NCBI GenBank assembly: GCA_051294905.1
Contig: CM119371.1
Span: forward strand, 4,590,001 to 4,654,000
DNA from: Botryllus schlosseri
Taxonomy: Eukaryota
Direction of reading: 5' to 3'
DNA length: 64,000 bases
Position numbers and translations under genes: made by a program. This document shows, piece after piece, positions 6,361 through 63,694 of the stretch; the first letter of the stretch is position 1; each line of letters opens with the position of its first letter. Under the pieces are notes generated by a model. The model worked only from the letters and a program-made list of their open reading frames with translations, searched no databases and was not told the origin of the DNA.

Positions 6361-6458
6361 TCAATACCTATAGCTATACCTATATCTATTAGTACTGCCC
6401 GTTCAACTGGAAAGTTAGGGCACATTGCATTGAAACAGCAGTGACGTAATCTTAGCAG

Positions 6459-11325: not shown

Positions 11326-11435
11326 CATGTTGGCTATCGACCCATCTCAATGACCTACCACCAAGCAAGTTGTGTCAACCCACATTTGGCAAGGCTACTC
11401 ACCTCGACAACTACCGACCACCTGCTTGCCTATCA
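11326..11435 (+). pseudogene. PLK1: PLK1-like exon E6 copy (kinase C-terminus), truncated
   Basis: cacag|MLAIDPSQ*PTTKQVVSTHIWQGYSPRQLPTTCLPI vs PLK1 MLQTDPTARPT...GYIPARLPITCL. Confidence 0.8.
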
Positions 11436-12523
11436 TAGGGTTACCATATTTTTGTGGAGCAAATTCCGGACACTCTATAGCGCCCACTAGTGGATTTTAA
11501 AATAAGGTATAACATATTGTCTGTCAATCTGACGTCACACTAGCAAAGCATTGCCCATCGACTGTATTCAGGAATGGAGTGGGATATAGAGCACTGGTGA
11601 TTGCTACTTGCTAGGGCCTGCAATAGATTCCTCCACGGGCCGGATGAAATCATCTGGCGGGCCGTGTCTGGCCTGTCAGGATTGTGTTTGACAGCCCTGC
11701 TATACTCTTAGGTCGGTGCGGCTATCTGTTTATGTGTTTTAATCAGGTCCGAAACAGCATTTTTTCTGTCCCCTTCCGCCTAAAAAAGCACTGATCTTTG
11801 GCCTACCGTCGATGTGACTTGTGGGGTACTTACTAAGATGCATTTGGCTGTTAAATTTTATGTATGAATTATGTCAATAATATCGAATTTTCTATAGATT
11901 AGGCTACTATAAAACGCACCAGCAGGTTTCACATCCGGTGATTTCCAACCTTTCATGGTCGCGACCTCATTTCTCACTTAAAAATGTTCCGTGGCAAATC
12001 TCAAAACTTCATAAGCTGATTACTAAAAAAATTCAGCTTGCCCAAACTTTTACTCACGGCATAGGAAACTGATTACGTCCAACATCATCGCGATCCCCAG
12101 ATAAAGGCGGACGACGCCAAGATTTGAAACCACTGTATGTGACTGAAGCATCCAATCGGCCTTAACCAACTCAAGGAATATACCGTTAGCTTATAATTGT
12201 GATTGCAATCTTTCTTATTCAGTAAATGATGGTTATTTATATTTATTTTGATTGCATTTTTTTGGGCAAGGGTGGTGCCTGGTGCCCATACTAAAATCAT
12301 TATACGTTGCATTAACTCGAGCGCGTGCGAAGAACAATTTTGAATATAGCATAAATCTGCTTGAAAATAATATCGTTTATGTTGATTTACGAAAAACTTT
12401 TGGTCCTGCTTCAAGCCTTCAAAATTCCGGACATCTAGGCATATTTTAGAAATTCCTCCCGGACGCCGATTTTTCAGTGAAATTCCGGACATGTCCGGGG
12501 AATTCCGGACGTATGGCAACCCT
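11436..12523. mobile_element. hAT-type element with TAGGGTT(A/G)CCATA termini, composite interior
   Basis: Left TAGGGTTACCATA, right TATGGCAACCCTA, TCCGGAC subterminal repeats; TSD not recognisable. Confidence 0.55.
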
Positions 12524-12537
12524 ACATTACTCCCGCT

Positions 12538-13844
12538 TTGACCCCTCAGTCAACGTGTCCGCCACCTTGTGCCATTGGAGAAAGGTTTGCTGCCGATGTC
12601 CTGAAGCGTGAAAAACAATGCATTCTCGTGGTGCGCGAAACAGTGTCTTCATTTACCAAATCTATTATCATTACAGACGAAAGAGCGGAGACTCTACGTA
12701 GCGCACTCGTAATCCTGTGTCTAGACCTGCGTCCACTGAACAGCCCGAACTCGGTCATCAGGACGGACGGAGCTACATCGTTTTCAGCGCTGAAGAACGA
12801 CTCGCTCCTCACTACCTACGGCATGGCTGTGGAAACGGGAAGGGTCATGAACGTTAATAAAAATCCCGTCGCCGAAAGAGCAGTTCAAGAACTCTCCAGC
12901 GAGATACTGAAGCTTCAGGGATCCGGCTATCATGGAGGCCAAGTGACTCATCTACAAATTCAAATCGCCACTTGTAACCTCAACAACCGTATCCGCGGAA
13001 ATGGCGTCTCGGCAAGGGAGATCCTGCTTCAGAGAGATCATGTTCACCAACTCCTCTCTCCCAATCGATGATGAAGAGCTGATAAAGAAACAACAAGGAA
13101 CGTAGGACCGCTAATCATCCGGCAAGTGAAGTTGCGAAGGCCCCGAAACGAGAAACGAGGAAATCGGTTCCAGTCGGCGTTGGCGATATCGTTTACCTAT
13201 ACAACGATAAGAAAAAGCACCGAAGCAGGGATCGATATTTGGTGTTGTCAACCGAAGGCGAGTGGTGTAACATATCTCGGTTTGGAGGCAAACGACTGTC
13301 GTATGGGACTTATCGCGTGCGTCAAAATGACTGTTGCTTGGTACCAAACGAAATTGGACCAATAGATCGAACTTTGAATTACTCTGATTCAGATTGCGAA
13401 TCTATCGAGCATGAGCCCGAGATTCTCGACAATGCGTCGATCTCCGACGAAGGGCCCTTGGAAGCATCGACTCCCGACGAACGGCAATATCCCGCAGATC
13501 CTGTCTCCGAACCAGACTCGCAACAACGTCTACCTGACCTCGCATCGGAGAGTCCACCAATACGACCTCGTCGGTCTCTGAGAGTCAGAAAACCGTCTGT
13601 CTGGCAGAAAGATTATGTCATAGACAAATGAAGGAGAAAACGTTGCGCCAATATTGTTTTGTGTTGTGTTTGAACGGAGCCGAATGTTGGCTCCTGTTAA
13701 TTGATTGTTCGCTGATTGCGACTGATTGGTGTCATCGCATAATTACTTTATATAACGGTTGCTCGCGGTGTTGGGTTCTCATCTTTTGCTGCAATAAACT
13801 TCTGTCGTAAGCCGACATCGTTCTTGGTGCCTATAGGGAATACA
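12538..13844 (+). mobile_element. Gypsy-like LTR retrotransposon 3' fragment (integrase, PPT, 3' LTR)
   Basis: Integrase D,D,E: FAADV, IRTDGATSF, NPVAERAVQEL; frameshift/stops after ~13040; purine tract GAAGGAGAAAA at 13630-13640; then a ~200-bp LTR-like segment with TATATAA and AATAAA ending TACA. Confidence 0.8.
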
Positions 13845-13879
13845 GGCTCTATAAGGAAAGGACGTAGTTTATTTTTGTC

Positions 13880-13997
13880 CTGGAAGCCATGGATACCAGT
13901 GTTACTAATCAGGTCTTTGGTCTGACCCGGCCGGGAGTCGAACCCACGACCTACCGATCAAGAAGCCGGACGCTTAACCATTACGCTATCTTGGCGG
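13880..13997 (-). mobile_element. tRNA-derived SINE head (family B)
   Basis: Minus strand has A-box TAGCGTAATGG and B-box GGTTCGACTCCC followed by CGGGTCAGACCAAAGAC. Confidence 0.7.
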
Positions 13998-14339
13998 AGA
14001 AGTTCGCCATGTTAGTGAAGGTTGAAAACCACTGATCTAATATCAGTTTGGCGATTTATTAAATCTATTATTCCACATCTTGCATGGTTATTAACATTAT
14101 CTTCGGTGTGGTCGCCGAGATAAAAAAAAAACTGCCGTCTGTTTGTTGTGACGGTGTGATTCGTTTACGGCTCATTGACCGCAATGTAGATGGGGGATTC
14201 CCCTCTGTGTGAGTGGATATTTGATTGCTCACTGCTCAGCAAAAGTATAGATTACAATACGCTATAGCAAAAGTATAATACAGATTACTGTTATTATGAA
14301 GAAAAAGCTTTATACTTTATGACATGCCATATTAAGAAC

Positions 14340-15350
14340 CAACGTACTTCCTTTATTCACATATGTCTCCCAGACGTCAAAAATGCCGGGAACATCAGAA
14401 GCAGGATAAAAGTCGAAATCACGAAATTCCTCTTCGGTATAGATCCCAAGATTGATTACACCAAAATCACCCTGCCCAAAGAGCAGGGAGGACTCGGGAC
14501 CATCGACATCATTACAATGGCTGACTTGGCGTATACAAAGCCGGCGGTCGAGTACTTGAAAAGGGCGAACAAACAACCGGAAAGCAACTTGGACAGAAGG
14601 CTCGAACACCAACTGGCAATCATTTTAACAAGGTACCGAAACCATGATATCAATAACGCCATACCACATACATCACAGCCGCTCAGTCACTGGAACGATA
14701 CCAAGGAACGACTGGAAAGCATGAAGTTCGCAAAGGACGACTCGAAACAAAAGCAAGAACAACGCTACAAACTCACACTGTCAAGAACATGCAACAGAGA
14801 GATTGGCGAAATGATCGGACCGAGCTGGGAAAATATCAACCACACATGCATCACTTACCATCAGAGGCAGTTCAACTGGGAAGTAGCGCACAGACTCCTC
14901 CGAACCAACGAAGGCTTAAAAACCCAGTGGGCAACAAAAACAAGAGACTGCGCCTTGTGCGAAACCGAGATAGAGATGCATGAGCCTATATTTGTGACAT
15001 GTAAGTCCACTAAAAATCTCCCAATATCACTTTAGATTCGTGGCAAGAGGTGACGCAAAGAAGACTGCCAAAAAGTGACTTCCAAGCAATACTCGGCATG
15101 AACATCGCAACCGCAATGACAATTGAGCAAAAAAAATACGCTAACAATATTGATCACTGTTTACAAACTGGCAGTCTGGCGAGCAAGGGACATAAATAAA
15201 TACGAGAAGCGACCGATTGACGCGGAATGGATAATAACATCACTACAACAAAGGCTCCGTATGCGACATAGAACAAACCCAGGTGATCTCACGGAAAGAA
15301 CGCTTACAAGGATACAAGATGAAATATCGAATGCATCAAGATCGATGTGA
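14340..15350 (+). mobile_element. 5'-truncated L1/Tx1-clade LINE, 3' part of ORF2
   Basis: LPKEQGGLG motif, HRLLRTN, C-terminal zinc knuckle CALC..EMHEPIFVTC, KLAVWRAR; stop at 15033-15035 and later frameshift. Confidence 0.8.
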
Positions 15351-15886: not shown

Positions 15887-16093
15887 GCTGAGTTGTGCTA
15901 GATTTCACAATAATGTAAGATAAAGTTTACCATCGCTACCGGTACTAAAAAGATCCCGAAAGTCGTGTGTGACGACTGTACTGGAAAACGATACACAAGA
16001 GGTACATTTCTTGGCAAAGAGGGATTTGCGAAATGCTTTGAAATCACGGAAGTCGTAACAAAAGAAGTGTTCGCTTGTATAATTGTGCCAAAG
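15887..16093 (+). pseudogene. PLK1: PLK1-like exon E1 copy 1 (Gly-rich loop)
   Basis: ttttgcag|...[47 protein letters not shown]|gtgagt vs PLK1 [19 protein letters not shown]...KEVFAGKIVPK; catalytic Lys changed to Ile. Confidence 0.9.
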
Positions 16094-16608
16094 GTGAGTC
16101 AAGTGCAGACGCAAGGAATCTATGTGCCCAATATATGTTGTATGCATCAATGCCTTCTTTTGTTAACTGTGTTGAAACCATGGATTTGATCGGAAGCTTA
16201 CATGTTGTCATTCACAAAGCCAGTCTAACACAACCAAACAAACCATCTCTTGAGCACTCTTGTGCCTGTCATGTCGTCAGATTCTACAATTCAGCTTCTA
16301 TTCCTACTTCAACACACAGTCCCCCTAGGGCCATGTATGCAACTGCTCATGTAGAATTACATTTTGATTAGTTTCAATGGTAACTCTCTTCATCTCAAGT
16401 CTAAGTTCAAGTGTAATAGTGTTCAAGTGGCTAAATAATTTTGTTGTTTCTGTCTCTTTTCCCAACAGGAACTACTCACTTATCAAAACTCGCAACTGCA
16501 ACTAGAACCACTCACTTTATGAAATGTGCAACTAAAACTATTCAAAATAACAGTAGTCAGTCAACCGTCAACTCATTAGATTAAAATTCGTTCAAGTCTA
16601 AATTTCAG

Positions 16609-16749
16609 GCACTTCACAAGAATAAGCACGAGGAAGAGAGAGAGATCGGTCGCCATAGCAGTTTGAATCACAAGCACGACATTGGATTTCAAGGATTTTT
16701 CCAAGAACAGGATTTCGTCTACATTGTTCTCGAGTTGTGCAAAAGACAG
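16609..16749 (+). pseudogene. PLK1: PLK1-like exon E2 copy
   Basis: tttcag|ALHKNKHEEEREIGRHSSLNHKHDIGFQGFFQEQDFVYIVLELCKRQ|gcaagc. Confidence 0.9.
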
Positions 16750-17754
16750 GCAAGCGTATTTCCTCATTACAACTGTAATGTATATCTAACTGTAGTGATC
16801 GCAATTACATCAGATTTGTAGCGTTTATTAGCTAGCCCACTTGGACAACTAGATAATACCAGTTGTCTAATTAGACTAATCATAACCAAATGCCGTTAAT
16901 CTAATAATATTCTAATTTGAGAAATACTTTTATGCTGTCATTTCAATTCTAGTATAATTTATGGTGTACCTGTACCTGTACAGGAAAACTGTATAGTGTG
17001 AAACTAGCCTACTTCGGTGTACAGACGCAAGTCATTCTGTTGTTCATGAGAATGGACTCTTATTTGGTATGAAGTGATTTTGATCTTTACCGCATTGTTT
17101 TACGAATTAAGTGATTCTGATCTAATTTCGATAACTTGTGTAGCTATAATTTTAATTCTAATCTAGTTTGAAAATTTTCTTTAATAGCCCGACTCTGATC
17201 ACTAGAACTGGCACAAATATTCGAGTACGGTACTCAAATCTGAATCTGTATTGATTCTAATAATTCGAGTCATGAGAGATGGTTTTTTAGAATACTGTGC
17301 TTGTACGCTCCTGGCCACAAGAGGAAAAGATGATTAACAATAAACTGAACTGAACGAAGAGTAAATTTACCAATTAAATAATTACACTTTCAATAGTATT
17401 TCTCATCGTGGATATCTGTAAACCTCAATTGGTCGTGTCACAGCATACTAAACATGTGTAGTAAGGTACTCGCGTGAGTGGAAATGACATAGGCTTATCT
17501 GTGAAATCGTTAGGCTACCGTATCAACCAGCAACATTGCACAAAGTACAAAAAGATGGTGTTATCGTATATTCTTTGTGATTGCATGAAATGTGCATATT
17601 TGAACTTCACACAGCATTCATGCATATTTATATGTCGTCATAGTGACTATCATCGAATACTTGATTCGGAATTGAACACTCAGGCAGACCTAGTCGACTT
17701 TGCCCAAACCTAGTCAGCAAATTACGAATCACATATTTTGAAAGCTCATTCTTT

Positions 17755-17840
17755 CACAGTCTACGTTTCTCAGAACCTTCCAAAAACCGGATCAACAATA
17801 TCGCTCAGAATTTTGGAAAGTAAACTACAGAGTTTCAACA
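17755..17840 (+). pseudogene. PLK1: PLK1-like exon E6 3' remnant
   Basis: FTVYVSQNLPKTGSTISLRILESKLQSFN|gtaagt aligns to the E6 copies at 28668 and 31143; downstream intron is homologous. Confidence 0.65.
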
Positions 17841-18421
17841 GTAAGTTTTCTGTAGGTCTTGGCAAATGGAGTTCCTGATTGATTTGATTCTGAATCGAGT
17901 GTTACGTTTCGAATCTCGTACTCGAGTCTCATTCATCATAATTAGAGCCTGACCGATATCGTATTTTCGAGCCAATACCGATAAGTGGCACCTTCACCGA
18001 TAGCCACGATATATGCAGCCAATATTGAAACAATATGGCAACTAGTTTAAGACATATTTCCAAACCTTCAGAGCATTTATTTGAACAACTTTGCGGACGT
18101 TGCTATTCCTGGATATGAAATGAACGCGAAAGGATGCATCTCACTCAACGCATCCAAGCAGAGTCACTCAGTAGCAATAGTAGCCTACCTCTACTTTTAC
18201 AGAATATTCAAGAAGGTTTTGACCCGCATTTTCACCATTATTAGTAGTGCTTACTCTGAGACGGCTGGAAGAACAGCACACAACGAAAAACCGGTATCAT
18301 GATTCACGACAAACTAAGACCCGTGTTTTCTAGTTGATCGGCAACTAAAATATTTGTACATACACAACTAGAACAACGCACTTTTTAAAATCTGCAACTA
18401 AAGCCAGTATATGAATTTCAG

Positions 18422-18570
18422 GCATTGCTTCTGAAGTAGCATGAGAAAGACAAATGTGTGAAGAGATCAGTCTCCAACGAAGTTTGAATCACAAGCACAT
18501 CGTTGGAGTTCACGGATTCTTCCAAGACTGGGATTTTGTCGACGTCTTTCTCAAGTAGTGCAAAAGAATG
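18422..18570 (+). pseudogene. PLK1: PLK1-like exon E2 copy
   Basis: ALLLK*HEKDK../[36 protein letters not shown]|gt; stops and a frameshift. Confidence 0.9.
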
Positions 18571-19629: not shown

Positions 19630-19755
19630 TCGCTGATGGAAGTTTTCAAAAGAAAACGTTCCATCACAGAACCAGAGACCCGTTATCGCACGCAACGGAT
19701 TCTGCTTGGAGTTGTTTATCGTCACAATTGTAAAATCATTCACAGAGATATCAAG
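19630..19755 (+). pseudogene. PLK1: PLK1-like exon E3 copy (HRD exon)
   Basis: cag|[42 protein letters not shown]|gtaac, 126 nt. Confidence 0.9.
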
Positions 19756-23400: not shown

Positions 23401-25046
23401 TAAGGATAATACAGCAATAGTTGCTTCATCCGAAAAGTTGTCAGAAATCCATTTATTTGGACATACCATGCTGACGAGTGCTTGCCACCATTCATGTTTA
23501 TTGTAGGTTAGAACACTGCAAATACATACTAGCTCTACGTTATTACCATTCACCAAAGTCAGCTATTCCCAATTCAATGTAATTTTGCTAAAAACCTTCA
23601 TTTTTCAACCCTTTTCCATAAGCGCTCATAGTAAGCATGCCCGGCCTCGTTCTTTGTTTACATCCTGCTGCAACCTGATTGGATCGTGTCAAAGGTCACG
23701 TAAGTGTCTATTGCCGCGCGGCATCATCACGCCATCGATCAATGCATTGCGGTGATGCCTTTTTCTCATATTGTTCTCTCGTCTACGGAAGCCCGAAAAA
23801 CGCATCTCACATGGCTCTCCCGTCTCATCTGAACGATATTATCCAGTTACAGAACCAGAAGTCACAGTAACAATAACACTCGCATTGAAATTTCGATACC
23901 GCGCGAGTTGGTTTTCGTGTTTGACAGTCTATTGTCAACAAACGTTTAGAACATGCGCGCTAGGCTTGAATCATTAGAGATAGCAGATCCCTACAGTACC
24001 AAAACAGATCGTACTAATCAAATGTTCTGTATGGAATCTATTATGTATTGATCCAATTTGCGATCATTTAGTTCGGTTGTTGTGTGTGGGTTTCCAGATC
24101 TCCAGCCGTTTCGTGTCTCAGGCCTCTGGCACATCTGCTGACTGTCCTATCATAACGCGCTTGGCTAGTAGTAAAACATTGGAGGCTAGGAAAATTAGGC
24201 CGCTCTGTGACTCGCGGCGCGTGATAGTGCTACTCGATGTGCTATTGTAATAACCAGAAGTTATAGTCTTGGCCTCGACAATTCGCAATTGTCACTTCTA
24301 CACCGCAAACGCGTTTAGGAATGCATTTTGATCGCGAGCCTAAGCCTGCGCCAGGCCACTGTTATTCACGTGATGCAAGCACAAGCTCGAGCGGTAATTA
24401 GTCTTTACCATCTCCACACACCATCTTGGCAGACAGTCAAAATCATATTGATTTAAAACAAAATGAATCCAGATTGTTTGTATCAAACGGCAACAGACTA
24501 TAATTCATTTGCGTATCTTCACTGTTCGAGTGTTCGTCTTTGAGCGCAAAATGGAGAGATCTTCCACTGTGTTGTAATATGATCTGCGCGCACTTTCGTG
24601 ATTACATCCTCGCTTTGGTAATTAAGGTCAAGATACCTCGCTGTCATCGAAATTTGTTTGCTACTTCCATCTGATCTGATACATTGTGATTTGCGAGGTG
24701 ATCGTCGATCACCTGCTGCGTTGAGTCATGATTCGAGCGCGCTTTGTATTAAAATCCGCGCGCATGAAACTCGCTGTCGGCAAATAGTGGCGCGCAAGGG
24801 AAAAGCGCCTTCTGTTTGTTACTGTAGCATGCGACTGCGCATAATAGAGCTATATTTTAAGATAATTGGCAAATGTTCATGTGTATAAAGACGTAAACAC
24901 AAACTAGATTATCTTACCCTTGTTGTATCGGCATTTGTGTGTACTAAACCGCAATAAAGTGGTTAGCATAACGAATATCGTCTTTTCAAAAAATATCCCC
25001 CGTTTTAATAAATATCCCCCGTTTTTTTTCGGCTGGCTACGCCCCT
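20423..25046. mobile_element. Nested hAT-type element (AGTGGCGTAG...CTACGCCCCT)
   Basis: Inverted termini; right flank CCAGAAAC, degenerate left flank CCAGTAC; empty site AGGGCCAGAAACTGTTA visible in the related MITE at ~48941. Confidence 0.75.
20549..23709 (-). mobile_element. ISL2EU/PIF-Harbinger-type DNA transposon, decayed
   Basis: ~200-bp TIRs starting AGACACTTACGTGACCTTTGACACG, AT on both flanks; - strand THAP domain from ATG at 23116 (MPDKHCANSLCN..PFPEP..CKIWIKACG) and DDE_Tnp_4 motifs at ~22205-21800 (HTTLKGL, ELFTGTISDR, AIMAEKGFTI, LNIP, RIHIEQLIGRINKYKIL); convergent + strand ORF relic near 20990. Confidence 0.9.
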
Positions 25047-25621: not shown

Positions 25622-25814
25622 CTTGGAATCTATTCGCTGAACAACATGGAGTTGAGGGATGAAGATTTCGACGAGATTTCATCCTGGCAACCTAAGTAGA
25701 CTTTGTCAGCCAAACAAAAAACTTTTTGCCGCACCCAAACTATATTGCCCCGCAAGTTATCGGAAAGAGTGGACACAGTTTCGATGTGGAGACCTGGCCG
25801 CTGGGCTGTGTTTT
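25622..25814 (+). pseudogene. PLK1: PLK1-like exon E4 copy (DFG/activation loop), frameshifted
   Basis: ..NNMEL..ILAT*VDF..PNYIAPQVIGKSGHSFDVETWPLGCV|gtgagt. Confidence 0.85.
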
Positions 25815-26739: not shown

Positions 26740-26898
26740 GTGTTACCAACACAGAGTCATGGATGCACATATGTGACAAGTAAGCCGTGACCATCATATG
26801 CAGTAACGAATCATCGGACTTTCATGTGGCAAAATTGGAAGCTCAGCTCAAGAAATTGATGCATACCAATCCAACTGTGAAGTCTGCAACAATTCTGG
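26740..26898 (+). pseudogene. PLK1: PLK1-like exon E7 copy (interdomain linker)
   Basis: AG/GT bounded; SDFHVAKLEAQLKKLMHTNPT resembles PLK1 [20 protein letters not shown]; paralog at 46085. Confidence 0.7.
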
Positions 26899-27659: not shown

Positions 27660-27783
27660 TCGCTAATGGAAGTTTACAAAAAAGACGCGTCATCACAGAA
27701 GCAGAGACTCGTTATTGCATGCGACAGATTCTGATTAACGTTGTTATCTTCACGATTGTAAGATCATTCACAGAGGTATCAAG
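27660..27783 (+). pseudogene. PLK1: PLK1-like exon E3 copy, frameshifted, HRD changed to HRG
   Basis: SLMEVYK../[32 protein letters not shown]|gt. Confidence 0.9.
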
Positions 27784-28667: not shown

Positions 28668-28833
28668 AATATTGGCATGCGACCCCTCTCAAGGACTCTC
28701 TTTAAGAAAGTGCAGGTGAGCGAGTATTTAAACGGCTATATTTCACAGAAACTGCCCACAACCTGCTTGACCATGGCGCCCAGGTTCTCGGAAAGCCAAG
28801 TGCAGCGAAGGCAAATTGTACAGAGTTTGAACA
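28668..28833 (+). pseudogene. PLK1: PLK1-like exon E6 copy
   Basis: ILACDPSQ../KKVQVSEYLNGYISQKLPTTCLTMAPRFSESQVQRRQIVQSLN|gtgaga. Confidence 0.9.
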
Positions 28834-30231: not shown

Positions 30232-30357
30232 TGGCCGATGGATCTTGACAAAAAAAGACGCTTCATCACAGAAGCAGAGACACGTTATTACATGCAGCGG
30301 ATTCTGCTCGGAATCGTTGACCTTCACGATTGTAAGATTATTCACAGAGATATCAAG
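30232..30357 (+). pseudogene. PLK1: PLK1-like exon E3 copy
   Basis: cag|[42 protein letters not shown]|gtaac. Confidence 0.9.
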
Positions 30358-31142: not shown

Positions 31143-31309
31143 AATGTCGGCGAGCGACCCGTCTCAACGATTCTCTGTAAAGGAAGTGCTGGCCAGCGAG
31201 GTCTTCAACAGCTGAATTCCTCAGAAACTGCCCACAACCTGCTTGATCATGGATCCCAGGTTCTCGGAAAGCCAACTGCAGCAAAGGCGTCCTCTGCAGA
31301 GTTTGAACA
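31143..31309 (+). pseudogene. PLK1: PLK1-like exon E6 copy
   Basis: MSASDPSQRFSVKEVLASEVFNS*IPQKLPTTCLIMDPRFSESQLQQRRPLQSLN|gtgaga. Confidence 0.9.
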
Positions 31310-31773: not shown

Positions 31774-31905
31774 GCATTTCTCGCGAATGATCACCAGAAA
31801 GACGAAATTTGTCAAGAGATCATCTCCATCACAGTTTGAATCACAAGCACGTCGTTGGATTTCGCGAAATTTGTCTACGTCGTTCTCGCGTTGTGCAAAA
31901 GAAGG
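31774..31905 (+). pseudogene. PLK1: PLK1-like exon E2 copy
   Basis: AFLANDHQKDEICQEI/LHHSLNHKHVVGFR/FVYVVLALCKRR|gtaaaa; frameshift and internal deletion. Confidence 0.9.
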
Positions 31906-32917: not shown

Positions 32918-33040
32918 TGTCTGATGGAAGTTCACAAAAGAAGGCGCGCCATCACAGAACCAGAGACTCGTTATATGTATCAGATTCTGCCTGGAGTCGT
33001 TTATCTTCATGATTGTAAGATCATTCACAGAGATATCAAG
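32918..33040 (+). pseudogene. PLK1: PLK1-like exon E3 copy
   Basis: cag|[41 protein letters not shown]|gtgact. Confidence 0.9.
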
Positions 33041-41051: not shown

Positions 41052-41227
41052 CTGTAGAACCTCTTCCTGAACAACAACATGGAGTGGAAGATTGAAGATC
41101 TTGGCCTAGCTACCAATGTCGACTTTGACAACCATTGAAGAACACTTTTTGTGCCACTCCCAGCTATATTGGTCCGCAAGAATGGACACAGTTTCAAAAT
41201 GGACATCTGGTTGCTGAGTTGTATTTT
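41052..41227 (+). pseudogene. PLK1: PLK1-like exon E4 copy
   Basis: L*NLFLNNNMEWKIEDLGLATNVDFDN../KNTFCATPSYIGPQ/NGHSFKMDIWLLSCI|gtgagt. Confidence 0.9.
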
Positions 41228-42060: not shown

Positions 42061-42201
42061 CATGTCTTCTATTTACCCATCACAACGACTTACCGCGAAG
42101 CAAGCTCTGTCCAGTGACTTTTCCACGGCTACATTCCACAACAACTACCGACAACCTGCTTACCTGATTATCGGAAAGTCAACTTGAGCCAAGTTGCAAC
42201 A
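42061..42201 (+). pseudogene. PLK1: PLK1-like exon E6 copy
   Basis: ccag|MSSIYPSQRLTAKQALSSDF/HGYIPQQLPTTCL...|gtgaga. Confidence 0.8.
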
Positions 42202-43937
42202 GTGAGATTTTTAAAATTCTATAATATGGTTACGGCTGGGCAAAATCGAGTACCTGAGCGAATCGATTCTAGATCGAGTATTAGACTTCTAGTCAAGAAC
42301 TCGAGTACCATCTATAATGACAATATAGCAGTATGAAAGGTGTAGAAAGTTAAGTATGTAGCCGCAAACAATATAACGCCAGTTGCACATCAAGATAATA
42401 TTGTATTTTTTCGACTACACCTATTTCATTACACTTTGCTGTTGGTTGATCACGACTCACAGATATGTCACCGATGCTTACAGCCTTCTATAATGGGAAT
42501 TATAATCGAATCACTTGGGTGCTTCGCGTTTCACCAAGACCTACATAGGACATGTATTCATGTAATTTCAATTAGAAAGGCTCACCGATATGCAAAATTA
42601 GTTGTCGAATTTGACCATCACAAATGAAGATGATGAAATTATGAACCTTCACAAAAGAAGGCAAGTCATCACAGAACCAGAGACTCGTTATTACATGCAA
42701 CAGATTCTGCTGGTAGTTGTTTGTCGTCACGATGGTAAGATTACTCAAACTGATATCAAGGTAACATTTGGTTGCAGTGATACCGGACTTGTACCAACCA
42801 CTGGATTTATGGAAATGTGCTGCTAGTACTAGAACTAGACTCACTTTCCAGAATTTTCAACTATAACTGGAACAAATGACCGTTAAGAATCCACAACTAA
42901 CCACTTAACTAACATATTAATTACTGAATTGCAATGAACTAAGAAATGAGAACATGACACAACAGGTAAAATGGCATCACGATTCACATGAAACGTGTTT
43001 TCTAGTTGTCCGACATCTAAACTTTTCAAATCCGCGACTACAACTACTAAAAAAGCAGTAGTTTGTTGGCCATCAACTAACTAAATTGGGAATTTGTACC
43101 AGTCTGAATGCTTGTGTAACTAAATGTGAAATTTGTAGTAAAAGCTGGAGAATCTATTCCTGAGCAACAACATGAAGATTGGAGATTTTGACCTAGCTAC
43201 CAGAGTCGACTTTGACAGCCAAACAAGGAACACGTTTTGCGGCACATCCAACTATATTGCCCCGGGAGTTGTAGGGAAGTAATGACACAATTTCAAAGTG
43301 GACACTCGGTCAATGGGTTGTGTTTTGTGAGTATGACGCAGCATTGGTGTTGTAAGGGTCTTAGGTGTAGAGGTGTAAAATATTGCGCACCCGAGTAATT
43401 CTATTCTAAATCGAGTCGAGGATTTGAGTAGCATTCATTACAGCGTCAACAACATTATGAATGCAGTTCTACATGATATTAAAGATAATTTTGTGTTTTT
43501 TCGGCCGTGCTTATTTCATTGCACTTTGTGGCAATGCTGTGAGTTGATTCCTTCAGAGATATGTCATTCCTACTAACGTGTGTAGTTTTGTTATACATGT
43601 TTTGCATGCTGCGATACGACCAATCGAGGTTTACAACCTTCCACAGAGGAAATCAGTGTAGAAACTATAATTCTTGTCGATAAATTCACTCTTACTATGA
43701 AGGAACGTGTCATTTTAGCACTGGAAAAGAATCATCTCTCACTACTGAGCTCGAACGATCAGAATTGATACTCGATTCAGATTCGGGCACTTGAATCATT
43801 GTGTCCAAGATTATCGGTAATTTCTGGTATTAAGAGTCATCTGACCAACAAACATACCTATTGGCAACTTGATGAACGTTTTGCTCTATTGTAGATATAC
43901 ATTGTTGGCCGGTAGGCCACCGTTTGACGGCCAGACT

Positions 43938-44285: not shown

Positions 44286-47200
44286 AACAACACTGACCTA
44301 CTGTAATTTTATCCACAGAATGTTATCTATTGACTCATCTCAACGACCTTCCGGAAAGCAAGTTGAGTCCAAAGCCAGTTTTTGCAAGGCTACATACCTC
44401 AACAACTACCGAACACCTTCTTGACTACCTCTATTACATTATCACAACACATCAACTCGAGACGACGTTCAATGGTGAGCTTTTTATAATTCTACGATAA
44501 CGTTGTGATATATTGCGGCCTGACTTGGACAACTAGATACTTTTAAGCTATTCAAATTGCAATACAGTTACAATTATAAATACAGTTTTTTGTTCAACTT
44601 GGACTAGAATTAGAATTATAGCTACACAATATTTGCCAAATTAGATTAGAATACTAATTATAGCTAGATATATAGTTTTCTTCAAAATAGTTTATGATCA
44701 AAATCATTGCTACTCAGGTTTTTCGAAATTACATTAGAATTTGATTTACTGAATTCGCGAAAACTATGAAATTGCATCAAGTTCGGTACATTTAAAATCA
44801 GAGTCCATTCTCATAAGCACGGGAATGGCAAATATCTGCTTGGATTGTTTTACATGATACAGTTCTCTCGTAGCAATTTCAGGAAAATCAGAAATTAGAT
44901 TAGAATTAAAATAATAACGTAGAAACATTTCACAAATTGAATATGAATTAGCTTACAGGTATTTCGCTGTAATTAGTGTAATTAAGCCGGATCAGTGTGA
45001 TTGGACCAAATCAAGTTTCTGTGTGAATCGATTCTGAGTCTAGTACTGAGTGTCGAGTAGACTAATCTAGTATCGGTCCCCGACAAGTAGTAGTTTACCG
45101 ATCATATCGAGTCTGTATCAGACTTTGAAAGAAATATCGGTATTGGCCATGAGCGGCGATACAATATCAACAATCTTGATGACGTCACAACTTGGTAGTA
45201 GGGAGTTAGACAACTCTAATCTATGACTGTTTGACTGGGGACATTCATATGTCATAATTCTAGACTACAGACATAGATGGTCGAAGTAGTCAGTAGAGTT
45301 TTCACTCAATTACAGGTGGCTTGGCTATGCTAGGTGGCTACTTCAGGTTCACGGCAATATATTGGGTGTTGTTTCAAGCCCTGTGGATGGCATTTTGTGT
45401 TTGTTTTTTTATGTAGACCGGCTGATTACAAAGGGTTGATCTAGATACCAGACCTTTTGAGTGTCTACCTAATATATCTGCTTTTTCTGTGACTTCAAAA
45501 TCTGATATTGGTCATGCTCTTGTCACGATACATTACAGAGCCTGCCAATCTTGCTAAGCTGTAGGGCTGGGTAAAATCGAGTATCTGGGTGATTTGAATC
45601 CGAATGTAATGTTAGATTTCAGTATAGTATTCCAGTACCCCGTACCATGAAGTTAATAACAGTTGTAATAACTTTAAAAGGTGACATAAGTATTGCTTGT
45701 GGCCGCAAGGAAAATGCCAGATACACTTCATGCAAAATAATTTCGTATTTTTAAAGCATCACTGTTTTGAAGCTATTGTGCGAGTTGATCTCTAAGAGAA
45801 ATATTTATGCTGAGATATGACTAACGGCGGTTTCGGGTAACCAATAGCAAAAGAGAAGTATTGAAACTATTTTTCGTTATTAATTTATTACGCTTGTCGC
45901 TTAGTGTAGGTGACGATGCCTGATAATCACGCTGTGGATTTGGAAACGTATGGTGTGTGACTTCGAATTTCAAGAATCCTATTAATTCACACTCTAATCA
46001 ATTATATGAAGTTTTACCAACTCATCACAAAGGTGATGCTATTGTCGACTAGTTGTATCAATTTAATCTTGTTATATTTTACAGGTGCTACTAATACAGA
46101 GACACAGACACTTGTTGGTGACAAGCCAGAGCGACCATCATATGCGGTAACAAATCACCAGACTTCCATATGACAGAATTGGATGCTCAGCTTCAGATAT
46201 TGATCAATAACAATTCAACGAGCAGCTTGCTATCATCTATCAATATGGGTGAGTCTTTGTGTAATCTATGATATTTTTATTTCGGATAGCTCTCTGAAAT
46301 GTAGGGTATTTCTACGAACCAGAGATTTAATATCTTGAAATCCGAAACTGGTATTGGGTCAAATCAATTCATGAGTGACAACTCTGTAGCAGACTTGGAC
46401 AACTTGAAAATTTCCACCTTTTCAAAATTACATTAGAATAACAATTGAAGCTCAATATTTTTTTTACATTAGACTAGAATTAGAATGATATCTGCATAGT
46501 TTTTTTTTTCAAACTTGGTAAAAATTAGTATTAGAGCTACACAGTTTTTTTTCTTCAAATTAGATTATAATTAGAATTACTGGAATTGCAAAAACTTGGA
46601 CTTAGAATCAAGTTCATTTCGTATCAAATTGTAGTTCGTTCTTATAGGCATGAAAATGGGAAATCTCGGTGCAAGCTAGACTCGCTTCGCACTATACAGT
46701 TCTCCTGTAGTATTTTCAGGAAATCCGGAAATTAGATTACAATGAGAGCATATAAACATTTCACAAATTAGATTATAATTTTCTAGTTATCCAAGTCTGC
46801 TCCGATTAAAATATCAGAAATTTCCTGTTACAATCCAGTTTATAAAATGATATTGACGCAAATCTGGCGATAACCAGATATCCGAAATTATTCTGAGCCA
46901 GTGCTGATCTTAAAATTCAAAAGGAAATGTTTAAATTCAAAGTTATTGGGAATTCCGTGTCCATGTTGTGTTAAACAGATACATCTCAACTCTTGCTGGT
47001 GTGTGACTTCACCTAAAGGATTCTTAGCCCTGGCTGACTTTTCAATTTTCGTATTTCAAAACTCCTTTCAATTCAAGTGATGAGGCAGAAGACCCAGCCG
47101 ATCAGCAAATGGGCGAATTTGACGGATAAAGCAGGATTTGGTATGGAAATCTTGGTATCAGGTTTGTACAGATCACAGGATTTTTAAATTAGAGCTAGAA

Positions 47201-48381: not shown

Positions 48382-48822
48382 TTTCAGGCTACCCACGATG
48401 TGTCAACGGCAACGAAGTTCTTTTCAACGATAGCACGCGAATGCTTCTGTGCGCCAACAGAGACATGATAGAGTCCTACTACACACTCCAACAATACCTG
48501 AGCACTCTAACCAGGAGAGTGCATGTCCAAGTAATTGATCAAGGCGAGTCGAATAATATTGTTGCAATTTCATTGTAAAACAACAAGTGATGATTCTATA
48601 CTGATAGACTATATCAATGAGAGGTGGTCAGTAAAGAAGTACTTCCACTTTGTCAGTGTACTCAAGTACAAGAAACGGTTTTAAGACATGACAAATTGTA
48701 CTGCAAGTAGCTGTCAGCGTTGTAGAAGTAGAAGTAACAACATGGATTTCTACTCGATTACATTTGGGAGTAGCGGTTTAAGACATGATAAATCTAATTC
48801 GAGTAGCAGTTAACGTTGCTAC

Positions 48823-49195: not shown

Positions 49196-52100
49196 GCTGC
49201 TACTCATGTAGAAATGGAAATTAAGAATAGTAGAAGTGATTTGAAAGTATGTAGAATGTAGATTTTCTAAGCCTAGTTTGGCAGACAAAACTGGAAACAC
49301 TATAAAAGTGAGATTGACTTGTGACTTGGAAACTTGTCACTTGGTTACAATCCTGGTTGCTACTCAAGTAGAAGTGGAAATTACGAGTAGAAGTTGTGAT
49401 TTGAAAGTATGCAGAATGTAGATTTTCTAAGCCCAGTTTGGCTAACAAAATTGGAATGGTAAACTAGAAGTATTCAAAACAATGTGTACTTGAGACGTGG
49501 TCCAAGTGGGAAAACCTACTTCGTTAATGAGCAGTGAGCACGAGGGTTGTCCAAAACAAACTATTTTTTCGGGTTCCTGGGATTTACTGATGAAATTGTT
49601 AGGTTGCCTAAAAAATCGCTGCACACCATAGTTGGTTCGATTCCAACTGATAGATGTGAACGCACACGAGTTTAGAAATTTCGAATTCATTATGAAAAAA
49701 ATTGAATGAAAATTCAGATTTTACTGTCCACCCACGAAATTGTTACATTTTCTAAAAGAACGATGCGTGCCCATTTTTGCTCACCTCGAACAGGTAGAAG
49801 CGAAGTGATTGCACTTGAAAATGATGGATTCGCTAAAATATCCTGTCTACTTGGACCAAATTTAACTTTACTACTTGTAGTTCAGTGACAGTAAACTAGG
49901 TTACCTCTACTTGAGTAGCATCGGTAACTACTTTGACCACCATCTAGTTAAGCTTGCAATTTCATGTAAATTTACGAAGTTACTTCTACTTGACTTGCAA
50001 ATCTGATTACTTTGATCACTTCTGCGAGGGCTTTAATATATGCTTTTCTATCATAAAGGACAGCAGGAACTCGCCAAAGTGATTCTGTGTCCTCTGATGG
50101 AAGCCGCGACTTGCATCGACCACCAAAGTAACTTCACAACCTACAAAAGTTTGGGCACTGGCTTGCGATACACAGATTTTATGTTGGAAAGAATCATGTT
50201 TGCAGACTCTACTTCAGAAGATGAATCTTGATACGCTCAATACAACGAGCAATATATCTGTATCTATTTTCTACATATTTAATCATCTAAGCTTTCAATT
50301 CACTCTTTTTGAGCTTGGAGTGAATAAATGAATGAATGCATAATAGGAATGTATTGTTCGTTTCCGTATTCCAACTCTTGTAAACCGAGCTGATAGAATT
50401 TATCGAATTAGATGTGTCGAATTGAATTTCTGCAATAGGCTTTTTTTGGCGTTACAGTTTTGATGCGTGCAGGGGTGGTCAAAAGTAGTCTAATCTTTTT
50501 ACTCGATTTGCAGTGGAAGTCAAAGTCGCGAGGTAAATTTCCGCTAAATCACGAGTAGAGCTAGCGATTGTGGAGACATTTCAAAACTACTAGCCACTAG
50601 CGGGAGCAGATCATGAGAGACCTGAAAAGTAGCCTACTTCAGTAATTACTGTATATTGAAAAAGTTGATTAGGCTGAGGTGTACTACACGCAGTTAATCT
50701 CAAGAGTATATTTTCCAATGACGACATTAGGAATAGTTTCAATATTAAAAGATATTCCGTGACCGTGATACAGCTGTTTTGTTCACTTGTCCAGTTTATA
50801 TGACAATTTCACTCGTTAAAGGGATACAGACTTAGCCTAAATCATGTTATACTTTTCAAAATACAAAGTGTGTCATGTAACTAGCGTTGCTGAAAAAACT
50901 TTTGAGTAGCCCAGTAGTCCAAAGACCTAGCCAGTAAGTCAGATTGAGAACGCCGAAAAGTAAAAGTAGGCTGCTTTGCTACTGACCAGCGCTGAAGATG
51001 TAGGGGTGGCTGTTGGAAAAAGATTAAGAAAGTGTAATTTGTTGAGACAAAGTCTCCATTCACCCATGCTGTCTATGCCGACGTTGGAAGGTGAAAATGG
51101 TCGACAGATAGTGCCCTGTTCCTGATGTATTCTGAGATTTTGAAGTTACCTGAGAGACATTCATTACGTCAACCGATGAGGCAAAACATGTATAAATATT
51201 CCTATCAATTACTGACACACGTCTGTCTTTTATGAATATTAATTGCAGGCTAGTGCCAAATATAGCAAGAAAATAACTTGTTTACGTGGAAATTGGTAGA
51301 CGCTAGCGAATTCTGTAGCTGACTTTCTTGAAATAAACGTCCATCGTTCATCCCATTCATTTTCATCCAGCAGCTCATTTTGAGGTTGTTCTGGGATAGT
51401 GGTTATGTATATCACCCACTGAGCTATATAAACACTGGAGTGCGCAACTTACCGTGACGGCGGAGAAAATTGAAAAACAGCTCTGGCTACCTACTTGCGC
51501 ACTGGTGCTTATGGTGAACTACTGGGATTCTCCGTGTTTTTACGCTTTTCGGGGGGTTTTCGTCTGGAATAAGTATGTTTTATCACAAAACTAACACAGA
51601 CCATATTAATGAACTATAGTATACCCTTTCTAATAGGTATGTCAGCCTTGAATGACGCCATGGATTGCATTTGCGACTTCAGTATCCATAGATGGATCTA
51701 AAACGGCGAAGACTCGTGTGTAACTTCAAGGGATACTGCATTGCAACGACATTCCGACGCGAATATTTCAACGATTAGCTTCTGACTACATCAAACTCAA
51801 CGTGAAGCAGTCTTGAGTAGCAGTGATGCTAATCGCCTTCGGTGATGTTTGCTTGCGAGTGCAGGAACACATCAAGTTTGCTCTCGATGTCTCAAAGAAG
51901 TTATCTAAACCTAAACTGCTTCTGCCCTGTCCATGATTTTGCCACGGTTATTAAACTGTAATTGCACTATGACTATACGGTTCTATGCACCAGAAATATA
52001 TCAACGAGATCATTGTGATATACGGTATTTTTATTTTAGCGATCCACATAGAAAGAGTATGGTTCAACTGGGCAATTCATAAATAGTTTTCAACGTTGCC

Positions 52101-60440: not shown

Positions 60441-60604
60441 TTGTACTCTATTTTGTTATGATAATTGCTCTGTCTACAATCTTGTAATGCTGTTTGTTTA
60501 AAATAGTTCTACACTTGATGCATTGCAGATGTAGCCATACTATAATTGAACCAAGTTTATATGCTGAAATACCGAAGATCTGTGGCTGTGGGTCTTTTCT
60601 CTAG

Positions 60605-62108
60605 TGTCATAAAGAAAAGCATTCTGTGGATCCAGTATTAACTATTGATCACGACTTGACAGAACGCCAATTCGATATATATTGGAAAGCCTTTAATGGG
60701 AATAGTAACCTCAAGCTTCATTTGGATATGCACGCTGGCATCAGAAATGTTGAATGTGATGTATGTGGTAAACTCACTCCGAAGGATACCATCAAGCGTC
60801 ATATGAATATGCATACTGGCATCAAAAATCATGTTTGTGATATCTGTGGGAAAGCATTCACTCAGAAGGGTACCCTCAAGCATCATATGGATGTACATGC
60901 TGGGATAAAAAATCATATGTGTGAAATATGTGGTAATGCATTCACTCAGAAGGGTACCCTCAAGTTGCATATGGATATTCATACTGGCATCAAAAATCAT
61001 GTTTGTGATATCTGTGGGAAAGCATTCACTGAGAAGGGTACCCTCAAGCATCATATGGATGTACATGCTGGAATCAAAAATCATACATGTGCTATATGTG
61101 GTAAGGCATTTACTCGGAAGGATACCATGAAGCATCATATGGATATGCATACTGGCATCAAAATCATATTTGTGATATATGTGGGAAAGCATTTACTGAG
61201 AAAAGTACCTTCAAGGATCATATGGATATGCATGCTGGCATAAAAAATCATGTTTGTGATATCTGTGGGAAAGCATTCACTAGGAATGGTCACCTCAAGT
61301 GTCATATGGATAGGCATGCTGGAAGCAGAAATCATACATGTGCTATATGTGATAAAGCATTCACTCAGAGGGGTGACCTCAAGCTTCATATGGATATGCA
61401 TGCTGGCATCAAAAAGCATGTTTGTGATATCTGTGGGAAAGCATTCACTAAGAATGGTCACCTCAAGTGTCATATGGATAGGCATGCTGGAAGCAGAAAT
61501 CATACATGTGCTATATGTGATAAAGCATTCACTCAGAGGGGTAACCTCAAGCGTCATATGGATAGGCATGCTGGAAGCAGAAATCATACATGTGCTATAT
61601 GTGGTAAAGCATTCACTCAGAGGGGTGACCTCAAGCTTCATATGGATATACATGCTGGCATCAAAAAGCATGTTTGTGATATCTGTGGGAAAGCATTCAC
61701 CAAGAATGGTCACCTCAAGCGTCATATGGATAGGCATGCTGGAAGCAGAAATCATACATGTGCTATATGTGGTAAAGCATTCACTCAGAGGGGTGACCTC
61801 AAGCTTCATATGGATATACATGCTGGCATCAAAAAGCATGTTTGTGATATCTGTGGGAAAGCATTCACCAAGAATGGTCACCTCAAGCGTCATATGGATA
61901 GGCATGCTGGAAGCAGAAATCATACATGTGCTATATGTGGTAAAGCATTCACTCAGACGGGTACCCTCAAGCTTCATATGGATAGGCATGCTGGGAGCAA
62001 AAATCATGCATGTGCTATATGAGATATAGCATTCACTCGGAAGGGTACCCTCGAGCAAAATATGGCTATGCATGCTGGCACCAAGATTCATATTGTCATA
62101 TACCGTAA
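60605..62108 (+). pseudogene. Tandem C2H2 zinc-finger exon, paralog of 8018-9274 (~14 canonical fingers); frameshifted, so either a pseudogene or an assembly indel
   Basis: Same acceptor CTTTTCTCTAG and N-terminal leader; A5 to A4 change at 61160-61163 splits ORFs 60626-61243 and 61222-62022; TGA at 62020-62022 in the last finger. Confidence 0.85.
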
Positions 62109-62839
62109 TTTCTCATGTATGATACGCCCCGCGAGACTTGCGACACGGTAATCCTTGTTAATACTGGCAAAAAAAAATCATAAATGTCAAGCTTTCTGAA
62201 ACCGCCAACATCAAGCACGTGGATTGAAGTGTTGAGTTCTAAAGTCACGCAAGGTCATGATCAAGTAATTCGAGTCGTGCATGATGCATCCACCTTAGAA
62301 TTGTTTCGCTGCTAGCAGTGTCAAGTGATTGCCCTTGAGAGCGGACGTATCACTACATTTCTCAAGCTATCATACTGTATGAGCCAACATATTTTTCATG
62401 TACACTTTATGATAGTCATGCAACATATTGCATTAATACTGGGTAATATGAAAGAGACAAGTATTGTTGTACATTTTTTGAGTATTGATGTACATTTGTT
62501 GACAAGCGTTCTACATTTCTCCAATATCCTTGTGATCGGTTTTCGTTTGTGTGATGATCTTGCAGCCATTGCTAGCTAGTAATTGCTTAGTTAGTCCTGA
62601 ATAGTGGTAGTTCTGTCTGTCTGATTCTTCAGTCATTTTGTACCGATGTTCATGTAGAAAGCAAATCTGATTCCTATAAAATATAACGATTGGTCTGCTT
62701 CGGAATCAAATCTGGTAGTTGTGTTTCGTTTGTTACTGATTTTCAAATGTCGTTAGTGATTTAGTTGTGCAGTTTAAACATTCAGTAGTTTGTATAAGTC
62801 TGGTGCCAGCTTGTTTATGTACGATATTTCATTTTGCAG

Positions 62840-63028
62840 ATTGATTAAATCGATTATATCCGAAAAAGTATACCTTGCAACGAAAGAGATCTCTGAATTC
62901 ATGTGTGATGACTCTACTTGGAACCATACAGGAGAGATCCATTTCTTGGCAAAGGCGGATTTGCCAAATGCATTATACTTATTGAAGTCAGAACAAAACA
63001 AGCTTTCGCTTGTTAAAATATGCCAACG
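62840..63028 (+). pseudogene. PLK1: PLK1-like exon E1 copy 2
   Basis: ttttgcag|..TKEISEFMCDDST/PYRRDPFLGKGGFAKCIILIEVRTKQAFAC*NMPT|gtgagt. Confidence 0.9.
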
Positions 63029-63560
63029 GTGAGTCGTCTTTGTTGACACTATAGAATCTGTGTTACTGATTCTATTTGTCACATTCACTAATGCCATTTT
63101 GTAAAGACTCTAGTGAAAACAAATGTGGCCAAGAACTTGCAAGTTGCCATTTCTACATGCTTTTTATAACTAGAGCTGAGTTGATTTTGGGATTTTGAGG
63201 CGATAACGATGAAACTGAAACCAAACACCTTCGCCGATAACCTCGATGTTTATTTAGATTAGGCCACATTTTCACAAATATAACAGCTTCACAGTCATTG
63301 CTATGCCTAGAACGGACATGAAATAAACTAGAAAGGCTGCATCTGGACACCTGTAAGATATAAGAAGTCTATTAATATTTCCAGTGTAGCAGTCGCACAG
63401 TATTTTGTGACCACGGTATGGCCACGCTGAAATTATATATATATTTGCTTCTCATGGACGATACCAGTCTATCTTCCAAAGTGTGATATCGATACGGTGT
63501 TGTTAGCAAACCTGATGGGCCTGGCAGTAGATGCGAGCATTAATTTAGCGTTCATTTTAG

Positions 63561-63694
63561 GCACTTCTTGTGAATAAGCATCATAAAGACGAAATGTGTC
63601 AAGAGACCAGTCTCCATCGCGGTTTGTTTGATTTTATGGATTTTTCAAACTCAAGAATTTCTTCCATATTGCTCTGTAGTTGTGCAAAAGAAGC
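63561..63694 (+). pseudogene. PLK1: PLK1-like exon E2 copy
   Basis: ttag|ALLVNKHHKDEMCQETSLHRGL../GFFKLKNFFHIAL*LCKRS|gtaaag. Confidence 0.85.

Follow-up and report, generated by a model that had tools for sequence, protein, structure and literature searches.

What gave rise to the long series of kinase-like exons, all on one strand and in a seemingly shuffled order, that runs through a 64-kb stretch of the Botryllus schlosseri genome (assembly GCA_051294905.1, contig CM119371.1, positions 4,590,001 to 4,654,000)? We call this whole 64-kb stretch the window and count positions from its first nucleotide. Its G+C content is 36–44%, and besides the exons it contains C2H2 zinc-finger arrays, reverse-transcriptase open reading frames (ORFs) and many repeats. 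We conclude that the exons are fragments of polo-like kinase 1 (PLK1), and that the locus is a cluster of unprocessed PLK1 pseudogenes that is old, tandem, rearranged and decayed, a reading to which we assign a probability of about 0.8.

Using a profile hidden Markov model (HMM) built from 23 PLK1 proteins, we searched the 2410 stop-to-stop ORFs of at least 18 amino acids on both strands of the window. Below an independent E-value (i-E) of 5 the search gave 31 domain rows, 30 on the plus strand and one weak row on the minus strand (i-E 3.4). All 25 rows with i-E at or below 0.12, which represent 22 exon copies, are on the plus strand. The 14 PDB matches of the stop-to-stop ORF at 15914–16189 are without exception PLK1, PLK2 or PLK3, with polo-like kinase 1 chains at E = 5e-14. 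For queries from exon classes E1, E3 and E4, all of the 12 highest-scoring PDB sequences carry the name PLK1 or polo-like kinase 1; PLK2/3 score 3–4 logs below PLK1, and other kinases at least 6 logs below. The top PDB match of the polo-box exon E9 is the PLK1 polo-box domain (E = 7e-5). Pfam recovers pieces of Pkinase and POLO_box among the window exons, the POLO_box matches in E9 and the last exon being partial and hence scoring below the gathering threshold. A phmmer search of the full library with the ORF of E1a returned PLK proteins and single-exon ORFs, and a second protein search, seeded by octocoral PLK1, returned named PLK1 proteins from many animals; these are ~41–45% identical to the window copies, and none stands out as the closest. 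Word-index searches of proteins with the E1a ORF gave no match, an outcome that speaks neither way. Judged by these protein comparisons, the source gene of the fragments is PLK1.

The fragments are arranged in the order E6 / E1 E2 E6 / E2 E3 E4 E7 / E3 E6 / E3 E6 / E2 E3 E4 E6 / E3 E4 E5 E6 E7 E8 E9 last / E1 E2. Their total of 26 is made up of the 22 copies found with the HMM, E8, recognized by two motifs, and E7a, E7b and E6b, which are placed on DNA homology or position only. In E8 (~47.03–47.13 kb) the two PLK1 motifs are collinear with the protein, lie in two reading frames, and match 132 and 123 reference proteins. E7a (26.74 kb) and E7b (46.09 kb) have weak protein similarity (i-E 0.76 and 31); their DNA is 71.5% identical (blastn E = 2e-21), their AG/GT sites align, and they are placed where the linker exon belongs. 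E6b (17.68 kb) is positioned from its downstream intron alone (17826–18141 is 80% identical to 28819–29136); no protein-level match was found for this copy, which is too decayed to score. The polo-box segment at profile positions 488–545 was not found in 48525–50063 with stops read as X, and a match by eye there is too weak to claim. The initial annotation of the window had described PLK1 exons in about 26 copies, co-oriented, in this order and with these counts per exon class. The PDB matches bear out the identity for E1, E3, E4 and the polo-box exon, none of which matches another kinase family best, the HMM search together with the E8 motifs and the DNA homology of E7 and E6b reproduces the order and counts identically, and the strand distribution of the HMM rows agrees with the common orientation.

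Two features of the DNA bear on how the copies were made. In a self-comparison with blastn, 78 high-scoring segment pairs (HSPs) outside the zinc-finger arrays have 66–93% identity, and many extend from exons into flanking sequence; those that cross exon–intron borders are 67–85% identical. In the alignments of the exon classes, the pyrimidine tract with its AG and the GT donor are conserved in nearly all copies; the 22 copies that could be mapped have kept about 19 of their 20 acceptors and 20 of their 22 donors. The exceptions are E3e, which lacks an acceptor, E2a, which has a GC donor, and E6a, whose 3' border is unclear. Because intron homology and splice sites are common to the copies, these are DNA-level duplicates that kept their introns and not retrocopies.

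The coding defects are spread over most of the array. Kinase motifs are given here their usual names (glycine loop, HRD, DFG, catalytic lysine), and the residues themselves are read from our alignments. In E1a a TAA directly follows the ATG, and this ATG and the PLK-like ORF are in different frames; the glycine loop has Glu for its second glycine, and Ile stands in place of the lysine aligned to the catalytic Lys. E1b has deletions of 7 nt and 1 nt, and where the catalytic Lys would align it has a TAA. Stops or frameshifts occur in both E1 copies and in all three E4 copies, each of which has also lost its DFG-type motif, and in E2b, E2c and E2d (stops and/or frameshifts); all six E6 copies are broken or decayed. 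The open copies are E2a, E3a, E3c, E3d and E3e only. With neither E1 copy and none of the three E4 copies intact, the window cannot encode a kinase. As far as the exon sequences tell, no path through them yields a kinase, and the region is predicted to encode nothing functional.

The copies are also far apart from one another. Pairwise exon identity is 72–85% (48–81% for E6), with a maximum of 85.1%. Over 19 HSPs with 60 or more columns each of exon and of intron, identity is 79.7% in exons (1951/2448) and 74.4% in introns (2516/3382), the intron value being biased upward because only alignable intron was counted. Differences at the three codon positions are 0.163, 0.177 and 0.222 in five close pairs (chi-square p = 0.23) and 0.240, 0.247 and 0.401 in six deep pairs (p < 1e-4); these pairs, small in number and short, were assigned by hand to the close or the deep set on the basis of the identity table, and the frames may be off in the indel-rich E4. 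At face value, divergence of the earliest copies would have taken place under some constraint on coding, and that of the later partial duplicates would have been neutral; the third-position excess in the deep pairs is a hint that these first copies may have started out as functional paralogues. With no pair above 85% identity, there has been no recent amplification or homogenization. Three further points of the initial annotation thus find support: duplication at the DNA level rather than by retrocopying, in the HSPs that span exon–intron borders and the retained AG/GT sites; disabling mutations, in the stops and frameshifts of most copies, including every E1 and E4; and an old local amplification followed by decay, in copies that are 72–85% alike, none of them young, with exons hardly better kept than introns.

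Within the array, the identities fall into groups. E3a–E3d are mutually 80–85% identical and match E3e at 75–79%; E4b and E4c are 79% identical to each other and 73% identical to E4a. E6c and E6d are 81% identical, E6a, E6e and E6f are mutually 66–71% identical, and identities between these two E6 groups are 57–68%. A minisatellite-like sequence upstream is common to E6a, E6e and E6f, and a downstream intron is common to E6b, E6c and E6d. Two units also recur. In what we call the B region, a unit of ~2.5–3 kb comprising E2, a repeat R2, E3, a repeat R1 and E6, without E4 and E5, is present several times. In the A region, a unit of ~2.1 kb comprising E4, an inverted R2, (E5), a minisatellite and E6 is present twice (40949–42221 and 43036–44494).

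From these groupings we infer a split into A, B and C lineages, an order of events and a mechanism of duplication. At least three old copies of a PLK1-type gene would have stood head to tail on the plus strand: a B-type copy at 15.9–33.1 kb (E1a, E2a–c, E3a–d, E4a, E6b–d and E7a), an A-type copy at 41.0–50.2 kb (E4b, E6e, E3e, E4c, E5, E6f, E7b, E8, E9 and the last exon, plus an isolated E6 of A type at 11.3 kb), and a C-type copy that would begin at 62.9 kb and run past the end of the window. The zinc-finger arrays ZNF-A and ZNF-B, each upstream of an E1, are 79% identical over 1.4 kb (7880–9265 and 60455–61848) and have a repeat unit of 84 nt (28 amino acids). Since the B and C copies each follow one of these paralogous C2H2 zinc-finger genes, the first duplication probably copied a unit of zinc-finger gene plus PLK1. 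Each copy would then have been scrambled after, or around the time of, its loss of function, by partial tandem duplications of 2–3 kb units (E2-E3-E6 in B, E4-(E5)-E6 in A) and by internal deletions that may have removed E4–E5 from the short B units and E5–E6 from in front of E7a. The duplications could have arisen by unequal crossing-over or replication slippage between intronic repeats. Mobile elements would have been inserted later, namely a reverse-transcriptase element (36.9–38.4 kb), a Harbinger-like remnant (20.5–23.7 kb), and integrase-like and reverse-transcriptase ORFs (12.5–15.0 kb), and a 63-bp minisatellite appears to have truncated E5. We also considered 15.9–50.2 kb as a single gene that had been duplicated internally; however, E3e, E4b/c and E6a/e/f stand apart from the remaining copies in identity, a pattern better explained by two old copies, B and A.

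Several observations weigh against the reading of the locus as a decayed pseudogene cluster with this history: (i) Four of the five E3 copies, and E2a, keep open frames. (ii) The numbers of retained acceptors and donors are somewhat above a rough expectation for fully neutral decay; together with the open frames, this retention could reflect late pseudogenization or residual constraint. (iii) The A/B/C assignment relies on short exons and non-independent pairs. (iv) Exon identity between A- and B-type E6 is no higher than that of one aligned intron family (63%), which fits uneasily with the third-position excess of the deep pairs. (v) The RNA mapping described below covers 31–51 kb of the 11–64 kb array, in runs whose tissues are unspecified.

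Table 1 PLK1-derived fragments and zinc-finger arrays of the window, in order of position.
Feature	Position	Strand	Description	Support
ZNF-A	8018..9274	+	C2H2 array ORF upstream of the first PLK copy	Pfam zf-C2H2 E = 4e-73
E6a	11326..11479	+	Exon-6-like, A-type; in-frame TGA; minisatellite-like sequence before it	HMM i-E 0.017; 11139–11432 matches 44093–44427
E1a	15913..16093	+	First coding exon	PDB PLK1 E = 5e-14; HMM i-E 2e-16
E2a	16609..16749	+	Open frame; in-frame 9-nt deletion; GC donor, not GT	HMM, alignments
E6b	17683..17840	+	Strongly decayed E6	Position only
E2b	18422..18570	+	Two TAG stops and 1-nt deletion	HMM, alignment
E3a	19630..19755	+	Intact 126-nt exon; HRD-type motif retained	HMM i-E 6e-14; Pfam Pkinase
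E4a	25622..25814	+	Multiple frameshifting indels and a stop; DFG-type motif gone	HMM, alignment
E7a	26740..26898	+	Probable linker exon	DNA identity to E7b; AG/GT sites common to both
E3b	27660..27783	+	Two 1-nt deletions; HRD to HRG	HMM, alignment
E6c	28668..28833	+	B-type; frameshift and stops	HMM i-E 1.3e-7
E3c	30232..30357	+	Intact 126-nt exon	HMM, alignment, Pfam search
E6d	31143..31309	+	B-type; in frame apart from one TGA	HMM, alignment
E2c	31774..31905	+	1-nt and 17-nt deletions	HMM, alignment
E3d	32918..33040	+	Open; in-frame 3-nt deletion	HMM i-E 1.2e-16; PDB PLK1 E = 1.2e-11
E4b	41052..41227	+	A-type; stops; 11-nt deletion; DFG to DLG	HMM, alignment
E6e	42061..42201	+	A-type; frameshift and 15-nt deletion	HMM, alignment
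E3e	42628..42760	+	Open frame; without acceptor site; HRD motif lost	Alignments
E4c	43145..43326	+	In frame; two adjacent stops; DFG to DFD	HMM i-E 2.6e-15; PDB PLK1 E = 2e-11
E5	43893..43937	+	~15 codons left, then minisatellite-like sequence	blastp-short E = 1.5e-4; Tandem Repeats Finder (TRF)
E6f	44319..44474	+	A-type; 2-nt insertion causing a frameshift	HMM, alignment
E7b	46085..46248	+	Probable linker exon	DNA homology to E7a; AG/GT sites
E8	47028..47126	+	Polo-box 1 start; frameshift between two conserved motifs	132 and 123 reference proteins matched
E9	48387..48524	+	Polo-box 1 fragment; internal deletion	HMM i-E 3e-4; Pfam POLO_box; PDB PLK1 polo-box E = 7e-5
Last exon	50064..50198	+	Polo-box 2 fragment; internal deletion of ~11 residues	HMM i-E 6e-6; Pfam POLO_box
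ZNF-B	60605..62022	+	C2H2 array in two frames that overlap; 834 bp upstream of E1b	ORFs, Pfam, blastn
E1b	62856..63028	+	C-type; ATG to ATA; continues off the window	HMM, alignment
E2d	63561..63694	+	16-nt deletion and TAG stop	HMM, alignment

Could the fragments instead be the cargo of a transposable element, captured from PLK1 and spread by Helitron-, Pack-MULE- or similar transduplication? Such capture does carry fragments of exon plus intron, the region is rich in high-copy repeats and transposable-element ORFs, and two short repeat families adjoin many exons in both orientations: R1 at ~16862, 27790 and 30761 (plus strand) and at 44534 and 46433 (minus strand), and R2 at ~17111, 18860, 27094 and 32247 (plus) and at 26017, 41583 and 43480 (minus). 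Neither Rfam at its gathering threshold nor ARAGORN gave a match in the window, and R1 and R2 cannot be named as short interspersed elements derived from tRNA. Against capture, the fragments are local, lie on one strand and keep the exon order of the gene within blocks, no copy pair is more than 85% identical, and a search for transposable-element termini, which was not exhaustive, found none that bracket the units. Sequencing depth points the same way. Run X14, in which 30 of 30 bins are covered, introns included, behaves like low-coverage DNA; its word depth is 1.6–4 in unique bins, among them the repeat-free bins of E3e, E7b and the last exon, and 100–9500 over repeats, which argues against many near-identical copies of the PLK fragments in that genome. 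We therefore regard transposable-element capture as improbable, if the best placed of the alternatives.

A second possibility is that the array is, or recently was, a non-coding conflict locus directed against a functional PLK1 paralogue, either a uni-strand source of small RNAs (PIWI-interacting or small interfering RNAs) or a drive or suppressor amplicon. The initial annotation had gone on from decay to invoke genetic conflict, with meiotic drive or small-RNA source loci as examples. All fragments are indeed co-oriented in a region rich in transposable elements, the preservation of splice sites and of some exon ORFs is fairly good, and Plk duplicates in Drosophila are linked to sexual conflict and sex-ratio effects in the accessible part of one study (PMC11708218). 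Ampliconic arrays are recognized by many near-identical copies. Here the copies are 72–85% alike, without young or homogenized members, and the highest pairwise exon identity is the 85.1% given above; their mutual divergence of ~25% should make long perfect matches of small RNAs to the parent unlikely. Exon and intron divergence are nearly equal, and the close pairs have no codon-position bias.

Transcription bears on this question as well. Three raw RNA-seq runs of one species label (X19, X21 and X23 are among the run labels) and one contig run were mapped to 31001–51000, with 6–13% of reads sampled. In the bins with PLK exons the depth in the three RNA-seq runs is ~0–1.7, and it is exactly 0 in all three over E7b (45675–46341) and the last exon (49677–50343). 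Of the mapped reads, 83–99% continue into unlike sequence, and most therefore derive from repeats elsewhere. Among 24 runs listed for 42.0–50.4 kb, those that contain the stretch include none recorded as RNA, which speaks neither for nor against transcription. In the same runs a neighboring non-PLK transcript reaches a depth of 100–190. The step to conflict thus finds no support in identity, divergence, codon positions or RNA depth, and we consider a non-coding conflict locus very unlikely. Equally little credence goes to a fuller version, in which the array would be a fossil or still-active remnant of a conflict in the germline about the dosage of PLK1: long ago a burst of PLK1 paralogues would have arisen beside fast-evolving zinc-finger genes, and their fragments would now serve as a low-level uni-strand source of small RNAs in the gonad against one or more surviving PLK1 paralogues.

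It is scarcely credible that some of the exons still make up a working gene, a divergent PLK-like kinase or a pseudokinase, in which alternative exons are mutually exclusive. The five open copies and the AG/GT sites kept in most copies would allow for one. Against it stand the stops or frameshifts in every E1 and E4, the reduction of E5 to ~15 codons, the frameshift in E8 and the missing polo-box segment, and none of the 15 joints listed, of 73 RNA joints in 31–51 kb, connects two PLK exons. An assembly artefact such as collapsed or mis-joined haplotigs, for which the repeat-rich region and the apparent frameshift in ZNF-B could speak, is just as implausible, given that the copies differ by 15–50%, far above allelic or error levels, and that of the sampled 31-mers of 42.0–50.4 kb, 59–70% are contained in DNA-type runs X1–X4 (one sample, the best perhaps being the assembly's own) and 35% in a run from another sample and study.

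The pseudogene cluster shares the window with other elements. The two frames of ZNF-B overlap at ~61105–61243, which suggests a frameshift, due either to a pseudogene or to sequencing error. Between E3d and E4b, a spliced non-PLK transcript on the plus strand has exons at 36095–36221, 39315–39502 and 40396 to ~41000; its GT..AG joints, 36221 to 39315 and 39502 to 40396, are spanned by hundreds of reads in X23 (the depth of 100–190 mentioned above) and by fewer in X19 and X21. An exon further upstream lies outside 31001–51000. No long ORF was found in the joined exons. Many of the reads differ from the window at fixed sites (e.g., a 3-nt gap at 39447), and a paralogue or another allele may contribute to them. 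The first intron of this transcript contains the reverse-transcriptase ORF at 36949–38424 (plus strand), which is open over 491 amino acids, has an RVT_1 domain (E = 5e-10) and is flanked by inverted repeats of 163 nt that are 91% identical (36421–36583 and 38700–38860). The element is probably a fairly young retroelement, possibly Penelope-like, as the layout of its ORF and inverted repeats suggests.

In the gap between E3a and E4a, inverted repeats of 300 nt that are 87% identical (20546–20848 and 23409–23712) enclose ~3.2 kb, and ORFs at 21776–22154 on the minus strand have weak, sub-threshold matches to fragments of DDE_Tnp_4, a PIF/Harbinger-type transposase (E = 0.0016 and 0.022); the gap probably contains a decayed DNA transposon. 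Between E6a and E1a, integrase-like ORFs recognized by eye at 12481–13631 (plus strand) include a weak match to DDE_Tnp_IS1595 (E = 0.0014), and an ORF at 14268–15035 (plus strand) has a sub-threshold zf-RVT match (E = 5e-5). The ORFs at 12481–15035 are likely retroelement remnants that widened the gap from ZNF-A to E1a. The 63-bp minisatellite lies at 44031–44271 (TRF; 3.8 copies, 91% matches) and has a diverged relative at 11135–11229, and a tandem duplication of 160 bp lies at 49139–49456 (49.1–49.5 kb). Word depths of 6900–9600 in X14 mark very high-copy repeats in the bins 36337–37003, 47676–48342 and 49010–49676.

An ORF of 81 amino acids (P0001) on a Logan contig of 1363 bp holds an intact PLK1 first exon that is 73% identical to E1a, and its similarity to the window, judged by eye, extends to the sequence immediately before the ATG and to the first part of the intron. 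P0001 is a candidate for the intact parent gene, or for its orthologue in a close relative.

How does the cluster compare with known systems? It resembles other unprocessed (duplicated) pseudogenes in its introns and splice sites, its local tandem copies, its disabling mutations and its near-neutral exon and intron divergence, and differs from them in an unusually large number of partial internal re-duplications and deletions, which make the exon order look scrambled. The co-oriented arrays Stellate/Su(Ste) and Slx/Sly are said to have many near-identical, expressed copies derived from genes with a germline or cell-division function; the present array is likewise co-oriented and multi-copy, but its copies are 72–85% alike, with no expression seen in 31–51 kb. 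Duplicated Drosophila meiosis genes, polo among them, are reportedly the subject of one paper (PMC3053365).

The closest likeness described is in Daphnia pulex. According to the portion of the report available (PMC2680839, Schurko et al. 2009), this species has eleven PLK homologues, of which six (POLO-F to POLO-K) are partial, rearranged, chimeric or stop-containing copies of the PLK1 clade, without expression evidence, and are read as pseudogenes or remnants of partial duplication. Like the fragments in the window, these are truncated, rearranged or stop-containing pieces of PLK1-clade genes; in contrast, they belong to a freshwater crustacean and, in that portion, are not described as one co-oriented 50-kb array of ~26 pieces, the likeness being one of descriptions and not of compared sequences. 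Independent duplication of PLK1-type genes also links the locus to functional paralogues, as far as the accessible text of the sources goes: the testis-biased, fast-evolving duplicate Dpse-polo-dup1 of Drosophila pseudoobscura (PMC11708218) and the PLK1 genes that arose by several independent duplications in the C. elegans lineage (PMC2680839). Unlike the copies in the window, all of which are disabled, these paralogues are intact and expressed. The statement of the initial annotation that PLK1 is normally low-copy needs softening, since independent duplication of Plk genes has taken place in many lineages of animals (PMC11708218), and the six partial Daphnia copies (PMC2680839) add to these. 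In our search for literature on arrays of PLK1 fragments, only the Daphnia and Drosophila papers surfaced and no comparable array was found; a species-specific report could exist.

The locus is thus an unusually large but otherwise ordinary pseudogene graveyard, and nothing short of germline small RNAs or sex linkage would give it greater importance. If our reading is right, the array matters mainly for annotation, as a 50-kb trap for gene predictors that may call PLK1-like fragments. It would also serve as a clear illustration of the way in which a pseudogene takes on a scrambled appearance through nested partial tandem duplications and deletions, and would add a second animal after Daphnia with a trail of partial PLK1 copies, in line with the repeated duplication of PLK genes across animals.

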